A stretch of 64,000 nucleotides of DNA from Escherichia coli (lineage in GTDB: Bacteria; Pseudomonadota; Gammaproteobacteria; Enterobacterales; Enterobacteriaceae). Below are positions 3,149 to 47,557 of this stretch, one piece after another. Position numbers and translations under genes: made by a program. The stretch's first letter is position 1. Every line of letters starts with the position of its first letter. The notes under the pieces are model-generated. The model was not told the origin of the DNA and searched no databases. It worked only from the letters and a program-made list of their open reading frames with translations. Location of the stretch: assembly GCF_046105845.1 (NCBI RefSeq), contig NZ_CP151004.1. One strand, written 5' to 3'.

Positions 3149-3997
3149 TCAGACCAGTTTTTTCACCAGCGCTTCACTATGACGAATACGTTCTGGTGCC
3201 AGTTCCAGATCCTGCTGAATCAGCGCAATGAACAGCAAATCCGTTAACATTCCCTGCGCGTGACAAGCAGAGATTGAAGCACTGTTTGTCGCTTGTTCTT
3301 CGGCAATGGTATACAGGCAATGAGAAGCGCGCTGTTGCAGGGCATTGGGAGTAAAGCCGGTAATCGCCAGCACTTTTCCGCCCACTCGCAGCATCTCATC
3401 TGCCGCCAGGTTTAACTCGCGTCGTACACCGGTGTAAGAAATGGCTAATAACAGATCGTCAGGGGACGACGCCTGTACTGTAGCGAGTAGCGCATGCATA
3501 TCGCGCACTGCGGCAGCATTGAAGCCAATCTTCATCAGCTTCCAGGCAAAGTTTTGAGCCACCAGACCCGAAGCGCCAATACCGGTCAGAATTATCCGCC
3601 GCGCAGAGCGCAACATTGCCACGCACTCATGCAGCTTCTCTTCACTATTAACGTTTAGCGTTGCGTACATGGCGGCAGTATTTTCTTTAATCAGTTTTTC
3701 GCCGACCAGCCGTAACGGATCATCACCGCGGATTTGGTTATGAATGGGCACGGAGGGAGATTCCGGCTGGCTTGCCAGCGCTTCACTCAACGCCAGCTTA
3801 AGCGCCGGAAAACCTTTATAGCCGAGTTTTTGCGCGAACTTCACGACGCTGGACTGACTGACTCCGGCTTCGTTGGCCAGTTGCTGAGAGCTTAAATGGC
3901 GCGCCGTATCAGGTTGTAGCAGCAGATAATCTGCCAGTTTTTTATCACTCTGGGCAAGCCCCTGGTAACGCTGACGGATACGAAGTAATCCGTTCAT
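3149..3997 (-). CDS. yfhH: RpiR/MurR-family transcriptional regulator (HTH plus SIS domain)
   Basis: Translation MNGLLRIRQRYQGLAQSDKKLADYLL... with an N-terminal HTH and a sugar-isomerase-like C-terminal part; start at the ATG at 3995-3997 (282 aa) rather than the extended ORF. Confidence 0.85.
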   Translation of the reverse strand: MNGLLRIRQRYQGLAQSDKKLADYLLLQPDTARHLSSQQLANEAGVSQSSVVKFAQKLGYKGFPALKLALSEALASQPESPSVPIHNQIRGDDPLRLVGEKLIKENTAAMYATLNVNSEEKLHECVAMLRSARRIILTGIGASGLVAQNFAWKLMKIGFNAAAVRDMHALLATVQASSPDDLLLAISYTGVRRELNLAADEMLRVGGKVLAITGFTPNALQQRASHCLYTIAEEQATNSASISACHAQGMLTDLLFIALIQQDLELAPERIRHSEALVKKLV

Positions 3998-43629: not shown

Positions 43630-45480
43630 ATGGCCTTATTACAAATTAGTGAACCTGGTTTGAGTGCTGCGCCGCATCAGCGTCGTCTGGCGGCCGGTAT
43701 CGACCTGGGCACAACCAACTCGCTGGTGGCGACAGTGCGCAGCGGTCAGGCCGAAACGTTAGCCGACCATGAAGGCCGTCACCTGCTGCCGTCTGTTGTT
43801 CACTATCAACAGCAAGGGCATTCGGTGGGTTATGACGCGCGTACTAACGCAGCGCTTGATACCGCCAACACCATTAGTTCTGTTAAACGCCTGATGGGGC
43901 GCTCGCTGGCTGATATCCAGCAACGCTATCCGCATCTGCCTTATCAATTCCAGGCCAGCGAAAACGGCCTGCCGATGATTGAAACGGCGGCGGGGCTGCT
44001 GAACCCGGTGCGCGTTTCTGCGGACATCCTCAAAGCACTGGCGGCGCGGGCAACTGAAGCCCTGGCAGGCGAGCTGGATGGTGTAGTTATCACCGTTCCG
44101 GCGTACTTTGACGATGCCCAGCGTCAGGGCACCAAAGACGCGGCGCGTCTGGCGGGCCTTCACGTCCTGCGCTTACTTAACGAACCGACCGCTGCGGCTA
44201 TCGCCTACGGGCTGGATTCCGGTCAGGAAGGCGTGATCGCCGTTTATGACCTCGGTGGCGGGACGTTTGATATTTCCATTCTGCGCTTAAGTCGCGGCGT
44301 GTTTGAAGTGCTGGCGACCGGCGGTGATTCCGCGCTCGGCGGCGATGATTTCGACCATCTGCTGGCGGATTACATTCGCGAGCAGGCGGGCATTCCTGAT
44401 CGTAGCGATAACCGCGTTCAGCGTGAACTGCTGGATGCCGCCATTGCAGCCAAAATCGCGCTGAGCGATGCGGACTCCGTGACCGTTAACGTTGCGGGCT
44501 GGCAGGGCGAAATCAGCCGTGAACAATTCAATGAACTGATCGCGCCACTGGTAAAACGAACCTTACTGGCTTGTCGTCGCGCGCTGAAAGACGCTGGCGT
44601 AGAAGCTGATGAAGTGCTGGAAGTGGTGATGGTTGGCGGTTCTACTCGCGTGCCGCTGGTGCGTGAACGAGTAGGCGAATTTTTCGGTCGTCCACCGCTG
44701 ACTTCTATCGACCCGGATAAAGTCGTCGCTATTGGCGCGGCGATTCAGGCGGATATTCTGGTGGGTAACAAGCCGGACAGCGAAATGCTGTTGCTGGATG
44801 TGATCCCGCTGTCGCTGGGCCTCGAAACGATGGGCGGCCTGGTGGAGAAAGTGATTCCGCGTAATACCACTATTCCGGTGGCGCGCGCTCAGGATTTCAC
44901 CACCTTTAAAGATGGTCAGACGGCGATGTCTATCCATGTAATGCAGGGTGAGCGTGAACTGGTGCAGGACTGCCGCTCGCTGGCGCGTTTTGCACTGCGT
45001 GGTATCCCGGCGCTACCGGCTGGCGGCGCGCATATTCGCGTAACGTTCCAGGTCGATGCCGACGGTCTTTTGAGCGTGACGGCGATGGAGAAATCCACCG
45101 GCGTTGAGGCGTCTATTCAGGTCAAACCGTCTTACGGTCTGACCGATAGCGAAATCGCTTCGATGATCAAAGACTCAATGAGCTATGCCGAGCAGGACGT
45201 AAAAGCCCGTATGCTGGCAGAACAAAAAGTAGAAGCGGCGCGTGTGCTGGAAAGTCTGCACGGCGCGCTGGCTGCTGATGCCGCGCTGTTAAGCGCCGCA
45301 GAACGTCAGGATATCGACGATGCTGCCGCTCACCTGAGTGAAGTGGCGCAGGGCGATGATGTTGACGCCATCGAACAAGCGATTAAAAACGTAGACAAAC
45401 AAACCCAGGATTTCGCCGCTCGCCGCATGGACCAGTCGGTTCGTCGTGCGCTGAAAGGCCATTCCGTGGACGAGGTTTAA
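43630..45480 (+). CDS. hscA: Hsp70-type chaperone HscA
   Basis: [34 protein letters not shown]... (616 aa); Hsp70 ATPase motifs; start at the internal ATG 43630, since the ORF-track start lies inside hscB. Confidence 0.95.
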
Positions 45481-45481
45481 T

Positions 45482-45817
45482 ATGCCAAAGATTGTTATTT
45501 TGCCTCATCAGGATCTCTGCCCTGATGGCGCTGTTCTGGAAGCGAATAGTGGTGAAACCATTCTCGACGTTGCGCTGCGTAACGGTATCGAGATTGAACA
45601 CGCCTGTGAAAAATCCTGTGCTTGCACCACCTGCCACTGCATCGTTCGCGAAGGTTTTGACTCGCTGCCGGAAAGCTCAGAGCAGGAAGACGACATGCTG
45701 GACAAAGCCTGGGGACTGGAGCCGGAAAGCCGTTTAAGCTGCCAGGCGCGCGTTACCGACGAAGATTTAGTGGTCGAAATCCCGCGTTACACTATCAACC
45801 ATGCGCGTGAGCATTAA
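45482..45817 (+). CDS. fdx: [2Fe-2S] ferredoxin of the isc operon
   Basis: 111 aa [53 protein letters not shown]... Confidence 0.95.
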
Positions 45818-45828
45818 CAGAGGTTAGT

Positions 45829-46029
45829 ATGGGACTTAAGTGGACCGATAGCCGCGAAATTGGCGAAGCACTGTACGATGCGTATCCCGATCTTGATCCG
45901 AAAACGGTTCGATTCACCGATATGCATCAGTGGATTTGCGATCTGGAAGATTTCGACGACGACCCGCAGGCATCCAACGAGAAAATCCTCGAAGCGATTT
46001 TGTTAGTCTGGCTGGACGAAGCCGAATAA
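45829..46029 (+). CDS. iscX: Fe-S assembly protein IscX
   Basis: 66 aa [47 protein letters not shown]... Confidence 0.93.
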
Positions 46030-46245
46030 TTTCCGCGTCATGCTTCACGCCGCAGATGCGTTGGCTGCGCTCGTTCACCCCAGTCACATAGTTATCTATG
46101 CTCCTGGGGCTTCACTCACTTGCCGCGTGATTCGGCCTTTTGGCCTCACCCCTCCGGGGCCAGCGCAAGCGCTGTTCAAAACGCAATGCGTTTTGTCCTG
46201 CAACGCGAATCATTTAGCGGAAAAATCCTGGGGCTGCCAACTGGC
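46030..46245 (-). repeat. ERIC (IRU) element
   Basis: The reverse complement of 46040-46130 reads GTGAAGCCCCAGGAGCATAGATAACTATGTGACTGGGGTGAACGAGCGCAGCCAACGCATCTGCGGCGTGAAGCAT, a close match to the ERIC consensus (GTGAATCCCCAGGAGCTTACATAAGTAAGTGACTGGGGTGAGCG...) as I recall it; abuts the iscX stop. Confidence 0.65.
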
Positions 46246-46273
46246 GGCCCTTTTACAAAGAAGGATAACTAGA

Positions 46274-47557
46274 ATGACAGAAGCGATGAAGATTACCCTC
46301 TCTACCCAACCTGCCGACGCGCGCTGGGGAGAAAAAGCGACTTACAGCATTAATAATGATGGCATTACCCTGCATTTGAACGGGACAGACGATCTGGGGC
46401 TGATCCAGCGTGCGGCGCGCAAGATTGACGGTCTGGGCATCAAGCATGTTCAGTTAAGCGGTGAAGACTGGGATGCGGATCGCTGCTGGGCATTCTGGCA
46501 AGGTTACAAAGCCCCGAAAGGCACACGTAAAGTGGAGTGGCCGGATCTGGACGATGCCCAGCGCCAGGAACTGGATAACCGCCTGATGATCATCGACTGG
46601 GTGCGTGACACCATTAACGCACCGGCGGAAGAGCTGGGTCCATCGCAACTGGCACAGCGTGCTGTTGATCTGATCAGCAACGTCGCAGGCGATCGTGTGA
46701 CTTATCGGATCACCAAAGGTGAAGATCTGCGTGATCAAGGTTATATGGGGCTGCACACGGTCGGGCGCGGTTCAGAACGTTCTCCGGTATTGCTGGCGCT
46801 GGATTACAACCCAACAGGCGATAAAGAAGCGCCAGTGTACGCGTGCCTGGTTGGTAAAGGCATCACCTTTGATTCCGGCGGCTACAGCATCAAACAGACC
46901 GCATTTATGGACTCGATGAAGTCGGACATGGGCGGCGCGGCAACGGTTACCGGAGCGCTGGCGTTTGCCATTACGCGCGGACTGAACAAGCGCGTGAAGC
47001 TGTTCCTCTGCTGTGCGGATAACCTGATCAGCGGCAATGCGTTCAAGCTGGGCGATATCATTACCTATCGCAACGGTAAAAAAGTTGAAGTGATGAACAC
47101 CGATGCGGAAGGGCGTCTGGTGCTGGCCGATGGCCTGATTGATGCCAGTGCGCAGAAACCGGAACTGATCATTGATGCGGCGACCCTCACCGGGGCGGCG
47201 AAAACTGCGCTGGGTAATGATTATCACGCGCTGTTCAGTTTTGACGATGCGCTTGCCGGTCGCTTGCTGGCGAGTGCCGCGCAGGAGAATGAACCGTTCT
47301 GGCGTCTGCCGCTGGCGGAGTTCCACCGCAGCCAGCTGCCGTCTAACTTTGCGGAACTGAACAATACCGGAAGCGCGGCGTATCCGGCAGGCGCGAGCAC
47401 GGCGGCGGGCTTCCTGTCGCACTTTGTTGAGAACTATCAGCAAGGCTGGCTGCATATCGACTGCTCGGCGACTTACCGTAAAGCGCCGGTTGAACAGTGG
47501 TCTGCGGGTGCTACGGGACTTGGTGTGCGCACGATTGCTAATCTGTTAACGGCGTAA
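46274..47557 (+). CDS. pepB: Peptidase B (M17 leucyl aminopeptidase family)
   Basis: [30 protein letters not shown]... (427 aa); M17 signature NTDAEGRL; AAGGA ribosome-binding site 8 nt upstream; the ORF-track 5' extension runs through the ERIC element and is rejected. Confidence 0.93.

Follow-up and report, generated by a model that had tools for sequence, protein, structure and literature searches.

The window analysed here is a stretch of 64,000 nucleotides from Escherichia coli, and the feature under study lies in it between iscX and pepB. The iscX coding sequence occupies positions 45829-46029 on the plus strand, according to the ORF list and the RefSeq annotation of identical and near-identical E. 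coli records. Its stop codon TAA (46027-46029) and the pepB ATG at 46274 enclose a spacer of 244 bp, and over the 572 bp surrounding the feature the sequence matches E. coli strain ST2747 at 100% identity. Most of the spacer is taken up by a composite repeat (46030-46223), in which a 127-bp ERIC/IRU element is split by a nested 69-nt cassette, as delimited by terminal inverted repeats, an alignment of three alleles and the family consensus. The classical ERIC consensus reads on the minus strand. Read along the plus strand, the ERIC left arm and central core (46030-46126) begin with the 7-nt terminal repeat TTTCCGC (46030-46036) and contain the central inverted repeat (46072-46115); they are followed by the cassette with its four small hairpins (46127-46195, plus strand) and by the end of the ERIC right arm (46196-46223), which closes with the terminal repeat GCGGAAA (46217-46223). 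Beyond the repeat lie a GC-rich hairpin, GGGGCUGCC-AACU-GGCGGCCCU followed by UUU (46230-46254, plus strand), a putative isc terminator or attenuator that is not part of the ERIC, and the pepB Shine-Dalgarno sequence AAGGA (46261-46265) with the true start codon (46274-46276). The pepB ORF has a 78-codon extension at its 5' end (46040-46273, plus strand), open through ERIC, cassette and hairpin, that is spurious and not conserved.

The element behind the iscX stop codon is an ERIC/IRU, a known kind of repeat, and no new kind of system. As ERIC probes we used the ERIC2 and ERIC1R primer sequences, which we take to be those of Versalovic (1991). Each primer matches the 64-kb window once with 19/22 identities, the two sites lying back to back at 46072-46093 (minus strand) and 46094-46115 (plus strand) within the central inverted repeat; 100 shuffled sequences gave no match. 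The 127-bp element shares 83.5% identity with an empirical ERIC consensus derived from 14 unrelated, non-orthologous copies (mean identity among those copies is 88.8%). Its length is the same in the K-12 allele and in the window once the cassette is removed. The terminal inverted repeats (46030-46055 and 46198-46223) form 26-nt arms that are 73% complementary; the outermost TTTCCGC and GCGGAAA are perfectly complementary, and this terminal helix covaries across genera. The family consensus has the termini TATAC.../...GGTATA, and the window copy has TT and AA instead, such that the TA duplication is no longer recognisable. This is the only ERIC copy in the 64-kb window. It is intergenic, and its first base (46030) directly follows the iscX TAA.

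These data bear out the initial annotation in its assignment of the element to the ERIC family, here by successful alignment to independent copies, and in placing the ERIC consensus on the minus strand. The span proposed there, 46030-46245, has the correct start, flush with the iscX stop codon, but the true end is at 46223; 46245 overshoots because 46230-46251 belongs to a separate hairpin that is present in relatives with or without the ERIC. The stretch had also been taken as ERIC throughout, which holds for 127 bp but not for 46127-46195, the nested cassette, which had been overlooked and is missing from the K-12 allele. Two Rfam families returned partial matches far below their thresholds: RF02818 (V_AS5) at 46065-46129 on the minus strand, with V_AS5 positions 36-104 falling on the ERIC core and a score far below the gathering threshold, and RF02798 (CssrA) at 45963-46084, also on the minus strand. 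The V_AS5 family of Vibrio antisense RNAs and the CssrA family of Shigella small RNAs thus seem to include ERIC-derived sequence. The K-12 MG1655 record carries no annotated repeat feature in the iscX-pepB spacer, and ERICs are unannotated in the RefSeq records of E. coli that we examined.

We defined the limits of the iscX-pepB alleles by aligning the window with K-12 and with two short-spacer strains, and counted the alleles in 5,426 complete E. coli genomes. A 58-bp spacer without ERIC, which holds little beyond the GC hairpin with its U-rich tail and the pepB ribosome-binding site, is found in ∼39% of the genomes (about 2,138/5,426). The 177-bp spacer of K-12, O157 and O111, with the 127-bp ERIC directly after the stop codon, accounts for ∼53%, and the 244-bp spacer of the window, with ERIC and cassette, for 7.8% (424/5,426). 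The ERIC is thus present in one form or the other in 3,287-3,288 of the 5,426 genomes (∼60%), and the anticipated presence/absence polymorphism is found in the form of three spacer lengths. Compared with the 177-bp allele, the 244-bp allele carries 69 nt in place of a CT dinucleotide, a net gain of 67 bp.

The cassette folds into hairpins at about 46127-46149, 46150-46160, 46161-46174 and 46177-46195. Four hairpins are predicted by minimum free energy for 19 of 34 unique cassette copies; RNAalifold on a MAFFT alignment of the cassettes recovered only two, the loops being misaligned. Compensatory changes account for stem variants such as GGCC/GGCC, GGCT/AGCC, GAGACGCAT/ATGCGTCTC, CCCC/GGGG, CCCT/AGGG and CTCC/GGAG. 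Any detectable copy is present in 436 of the 5,426 E. coli genomes, never more than one per genome, and it occupies either the iscX-pepB spacer (424 genomes) or an ERIC between yjfN and bsmA (12 genomes), with no genome having both. In E. coli 06-00048 the yjfN-bsmA copy is 80% identical and lies inside a consensus-like ERIC (L005, 1405-1600). The cassette form of the iscX-pepB spacer, a minority allele in E. coli, is found also in E. whittamii and Leclercia. Searching metagenomes with a 19-nt cassette motif gave 112 stretches, comprising about 100 real copies and a handful of chance matches. Cassettes of this type thus occur almost exclusively in ERICs, at fixed internal positions. Nearly all metagenomic cassettes are located in the ERIC right arm, between ...GCCGC|G and |TCCTGCAAC, and in one orientation; the same junctions are common to the window, the E. 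coli yjfN-bsmA locus, Leclercia and E. whittamii. A second, related cassette occurs in the left arm of three ERICs (L014, L199, L160). In Klebsiella pneumoniae downstream of speB and in Salmonella near gyrA, the central core of the ERIC has been lost and the cassette kept.

Recombination or gene conversion with a second ERIC that already bore a cassette is the probable route by which the cassette reached the resident element, rather than ordinary transposition. Derivation of the K-12 short form by deletion of the cassette was rejected, since the consensus CT of the short form is missing from the cassette junctions. We also considered an IS200/IS605-like origin, since many copies begin with TTAC, but abandoned the idea as the short ERIC lacks a TTAC target at this position. 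The matches labelled as plasmids, for the cassette and for IscX alike, proved to be mislabelled chromosomes, and they revealed no plasmid or phage that could have donated the cassette. A scan of viral contigs with the four-hairpin pattern returned 17 stretches, almost all of them chance matches; the only real ERIC among these was L014, with two cassettes. Where there is a cassette in each arm, as in L014 (5590-5850, minus strand), L199, L160 and L123, the two have the same orientation and are not mirrored. The orthologous ERIC of Salmonella enterica arizonae carries a different, three-hairpin cassette of ∼70 nt, which follows GGGGATT (L101, 1785-1854), and one metagenomic ERIC (L180) contains the arizonae-type and the window-type cassettes together.

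To place the iscX copy in a phylogenetic context, we scanned one genome per species using IscX as an anchor, which yielded 79 iscX-pepB spacers. In 10 species of 7-8 genera, an ERIC begins with the base that directly follows the iscX stop codon. Identity to the K-12 copy is 98% in E. albertii, 90.6% in S. enterica arizonae (where the different cassette occupies another internal site), 90% in Enterobacter asburiae, 89-91% in Kluyvera genomosp. 3, 88% in Citrobacter youngae ATCC 29220, 86% in Enterobacter sp. ENT03 and 70% in the more diverged copy of Raoultella. E. whittamii has the long form, with a cassette identical in 69/69 positions, Leclercia adecarboxylata also has a long form, and the core is deleted in S. 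enterica diarizonae. Ever smaller ERIC remnants starting with TAATTT(T/C)CG... are present in Klebsiella oxytoca, K. grimontii, Kluyvera intermedia, K. cryocrescens, Enterobacter JUb54 and Raoultella BIGb0138. In the alignment 88 of 127 columns are invariant, and 12 substitutions relative to the family consensus are common to all seven genera. These shared substitutions point to a single insertion, as separate insertions from the ERIC pool of each species would not produce them. As judged from these alignments, the comparison shows one landing of the ERIC before Escherichia, Salmonella, Citrobacter, Enterobacter, Kluyvera, Leclercia and Raoultella split, after which it would have been kept, eroded or lost. 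A recent event, implied when the element was first described as "inserted", is at odds with a copy that is orthologous across at least seven genera.

We next assessed structure and constraint. The ERIC folds more stably than shuffled sequences, with z-scores of -4.1 for the K-12 version and -5.3 for the window version. Covariation was analysed in 11 ERIC copies (10 orthologues and one paralogue) on a 35-pair consensus hairpin, in which 96.3% of the cells are paired. Double-sided compensatory changes are found in 12 of the 35 pairs; column-shuffled alignments gave 3.8 ± 1.4 such pairs, and slid controls 1-3. Of the 12 locus-specific substitutions, ten combine into five compensatory pairs, three of them in the 7-bp terminal helix (TATACCC/GGGTATA to TTTCCGC/GCGGAAA). 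Mean identity of the ERIC between genera is 86.4%; in the genes that flank it (fdx, iscX and pepB), four-fold sites are 51-55% identical and thus saturated, and codon positions 1 and 2 are 92-95% identical. Substitution in the noncoding ERIC is therefore several times slower than at nearby silent sites. Slow change together with compensatory pairing argues that at least the iscX-pepB copy is under constraint, which leaves its element type unchanged.

The hairpin downstream of the ERIC (46230-46251) has a predicted 9-bp GC-rich stem, starts six bases beyond the ERIC end and is followed by a short run of 3-4 U residues. The same hairpin, with variable loops, is found in 79/79 iscX-pepB spacers examined, with or without an ERIC. 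A consensus promoter and terminator scan of 45400-46700 called no terminator, missing the hairpin with its run of only 4 U residues, and found no sigma-70-like promoter on either strand. Two sequence families of this terminator and pepB leader can be distinguished (window 46224-46273; L002/L003 502-559; L025-L104 spacers). The first, GGCGGCCC(G/T)TTT(GCT/ACA)AA.AAGG, occurs with or without an ERIC in many genera. The second, GGT(A/G)GCCCGTTTT(G/C)CTGT...CGAA.AAGG, is never accompanied by an ERIC and is found in the ERIC-less alleles of E. coli and in several Citrobacter. That both families recur in two genera points either to an old polymorphism or to lateral exchange.

In iscR mutants of Yersinia pseudotuberculosis, derepression of the isc genes extends to pepB and sseB (PMC4055776), and that report cites Giel et al. 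for the same effect on pepB and sseB in E. coli iscR mutants. Given this co-derepression, the spacer probably lies between cistrons of one message, a weak terminator being read through in part, rather than forming a pure 3' untranslated region. In K-12, a MazF-processed pepB 5' end maps 19 nt upstream of the ATG (PMC5001579), which implies a longer pepB leader. An ACA at 46255-46257, after the U run of the hairpin and 19 nt upstream of the pepB ATG, corresponds to this MazF site. The ERIC should be transcribed with isc, since it lies upstream of the conserved hairpin and has no promoter-like site nearby. The E. coli 3'-end tables of Adams et al. 2021, which are possibly incomplete, contain no entry for iscX, pepB, hscA or iscR and no coordinate in the spacer.

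Yersinia ERICs that are co-transcribed with flanking genes cause an orientation-dependent, RNase E-linked change in the stability of the upstream mRNA, according to the reviews PMC2229807 and PMC3184786, which summarise De Gregorio et al. (2005). Three other stop-adjacent ERICs in our collection (L112, L133/L006 and L187) have the same orientation as the iscX copy. Stop-codon-adjacent ERICs of Yersinia reportedly share one orientation. A point against a Yersinia-type role here is that GAAUU, the strongest RNase E candidate in the right repeat of the consensus, is changed to GAAUC in the window copy.

We propose that the ERIC would be transcribed with iscRSUA-hscBA-fdx-iscX and, by read-through, also with pepB-sseB. 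Its RNA is predicted to fold into a long branched hairpin, the base of which would abut the iscX stop codon, so that ribosomes terminating on iscX would open the lower stem. The ERIC might then act in cis as an RNA structure that tunes processing or decay at the iscX-pepB junction. Following the model from Yersinia, ribosomes would expose an RNase E site within the distal terminal repeat and so lower the level of the upstream relative to the downstream message. Any such effect would be modulatory, and it would be dispensable, because ∼39% of E. coli and most genera have no ERIC here and several lineages have decaying copies. By analogy, a modulatory role for a co-transcribed RNA structure at the junction is plausible. 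We lean, if only slightly, towards the account as a whole, in which an old, resident, composite ERIC would act as a cis RNA element between iscX and pepB. Against a role at the RNA level, compensatory changes in a DNA palindrome can arise without selection, by template-switch correction.

The last point is the core of the main alternative, according to which the ERIC is a selfish relic that has no role for the host. Its pairing would be kept by DNA palindrome processes (hairpin-templated template switching or mismatch correction), and the similarity between genera would reflect lateral spread of ERIC-bearing spacers. The frequent loss of the element and its stepwise internal deletions fit such a relic, as does its patchy presence within genera: C. 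youngae ATCC 29220 has the ERIC, CCUG 30791 lacks it, and among three Leclercia genomes a single one carries it. The ERIC identities are also out of step with taxonomy, with 96.8% between Kluyvera genomosp. 3 and S. arizonae, and the two terminator/leader haplotype families common to Escherichia and Citrobacter point the same way. The excess of G.U over A.C pairs on the isc-sense strand, 5 versus 2, is a weak pointer to RNA rather than DNA pairing given the small numbers. However, four-fold sites of the adjacent iscX gene are saturated in these same genome pairs, and lateral transfer would thus require breakpoints at the ERIC edges in many lineages. Template switching does not explain why positions in unpaired loops and bulges are conserved as well, as seen in the 88 invariant columns, and it should yield perfect pairs, whereas G.U pairs persist (T33.G96 is kept in 8/11 copies). 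On balance we regard a neutral relic as possible, but rather unlikely.

A stronger version of the preferred account, that of a cis-acting ERIC, would see in it a domesticated noncoding isc-pepB element, selected for sequence and hairpin since before the split of Escherichia, Salmonella and Enterobacter. The cassette would have been exchanged without a resident donor, by gene conversion from incoming ERICs or by an unfamiliar site-specific mechanism, and the three alleles would differ in the balance between Fe-S assembly and pepB-sseB mRNAs. This combination of claims is tentative and, on balance, unlikely.

An improbable reading is that the ERIC serves pepB and not isc, as a promoter or regulatory 5' leader for pepB-sseB. 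The element lies 50 bp upstream of the pepB start, the pepB leader in K-12 extends beyond -19, and Serratia has independent ERICs between the hairpin and pepB. Yet the region from 45400 to 46700 returned no sigma-70-like promoter on either strand, the conserved hairpin separates the ERIC from pepB, and pepB tracks isc regulation. The ERIC-less 58-bp alleles, which are nearly all hairpin and ribosome-binding site, must still express pepB.

It is less probable still that the cassette encodes a small RNA, read from the minus strand and antisense to the isc mRNA. The idea derives from Rfam RF02902 (AaHKsRNA22, Aggregatibacter sRNA 22), which matches the window at 46131-46203 on the minus strand with 45.3 bits, above its gathering threshold of 39.8, and the E. 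whittamii copy with 44.4 bits. However, other cassette copies fall short of it (34.4 bits in Leclercia) or go undetected. Only two of eight cassette or ERIC loci tested pass, such that the match is marginal for the cassette family overall; it also takes in flanking ERIC bases, and palindromic hairpins make the call of the strand weak. No promoter-like site was found in 45400-46700, and the cassette always sits in an ERIC arm in one fixed orientation, as expected of a repeat module rather than a gene. RF02902 is probably a repeat-derived family, in which case the match is no evidence for a small-RNA gene.

We give practically no credence to a PepB protein with a 78-residue N-terminal extension encoded by the repeat: an uninterrupted frame does run from ATG 46040 in the pepB frame, and open frames are known in ERICs (PMC2229807), but the extension is allele-specific, is absent from the 39% of strains with the 58-bp spacer, and is contradicted by a good AAGGA ribosome-binding site 8 nt ahead of ATG 46274, by the RefSeq record of the identical strain ST2747, in which the pepB start maps to this short site, and by the PepB N-terminus MTEAMKITL, for which the alignment starts at residue 1 in most of the 79 species (ATG in 60 of them) and at residue 2 in the others. 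The suggestion that the ERIC explains the longer ORF proved correct, as ATG 46040 falls in the left arm, within the terminal repeat region, and ERIC, cassette and hairpin happen to be open in the pepB frame; in the K-12 allele the 67-bp difference shifts the left arm to another frame, with no ATG available. For annotation, the ERIC at iscX thus yields a false 78-codon pepB extension in naive ORF calls.

In its general features the iscX copy resembles the ERIC, IRU or RU-1 elements of Sharples & Lloyd (1990) and Hulton, Higgins & Sharp (1991), which are reviewed in PMC2229807 and PMC3184786. It is an imperfect palindrome of 127 bp that carries inverted repeats at its ends and a conserved one at its centre, is intergenic in what appears to be a transcription unit, and is predicted to fold into a long hairpin. 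Unlike a typical ERIC, it is diverged (83.5% identity to the consensus, with 12 locus-specific substitutions), has the termini TT...AA instead of a TA...TA duplication, and is orthologous across genera, whereas ERIC sites are usually said to differ between species. Like the stability ERICs of Yersinia, it adjoins a stop codon between genes that are apparently co-transcribed, with a hairpin base within reach of terminating ribosomes; it differs in that the AU-rich motif of the distal repeat is altered. REP/BIME and Correia/NEMIS elements, co-transcribed hairpins with a part in mRNA protection or processing, are comparable as repeated palindromes in operon spacers, where the iscX ERIC would likewise shape segmental mRNA decay, but they are unrelated sequence families, and sizes and nucleases differ.

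Sharp (1997, "Insertions within ERIC sequences") and Cromie, Collins & Leach (1997) reportedly described internal ERIC insertions of ∼70 bp. The iscX cassette is similar in its size of ∼70 nt, its construction from hairpins and its fixed internal ERIC site; in contrast to those insertions, it is dimorphic at one orthologous locus within one species and is the sole copy in carrier genomes. It fits the RF02902 covariance model of four small hairpins above threshold, yet with two of eight loci passing for RF02902, and V_AS5 and CssrA scoring far below their thresholds, it differs from these families as small RNAs. The empty, ERIC and ERIC-plus-cassette spacers form a natural allele series in thousands of E. 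coli, inside the Fe-S cluster assembly operon. Together with the deep orthology and strong conservation of the copy, this series makes the iscX-pepB locus well suited to asking whether an ERIC is of any use to its host.

The iscX stop codon itself (TAA, TGA or TAG) differs within and between species regardless of the presence of an ERIC (window 46027-46029 compared with L003, L025, L026 and L029). At the E. coli locus that carries the yjfN-bsmA cassette, a stretch between aidB and yjfN (L005, 914-951) shows a weak Rfam match to naRNA4/CssrE, a REP-derived nucleoid-associated RNA (37.1 bits compared with a gathering threshold of 59.5). Independent ERICs are located between the hairpin and pepB in Serratia, in one orientation in three species (L030, L064 and L068, ∼1750-1870) and in the opposite orientation in two further species (L100 and L088), one of which has the core deleted. 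As these lie downstream of the hairpin, the spacer has been struck more than once and is a recurrent landing site for ERICs. In Klebsiella indica (L037, 1765-1925), the right terminal repeat of the ERIC remnant next to the iscX stop codon is interrupted by another element of ∼150 bp with the inverted ends AGTCTATCCCA...TGGGATAGGCT.
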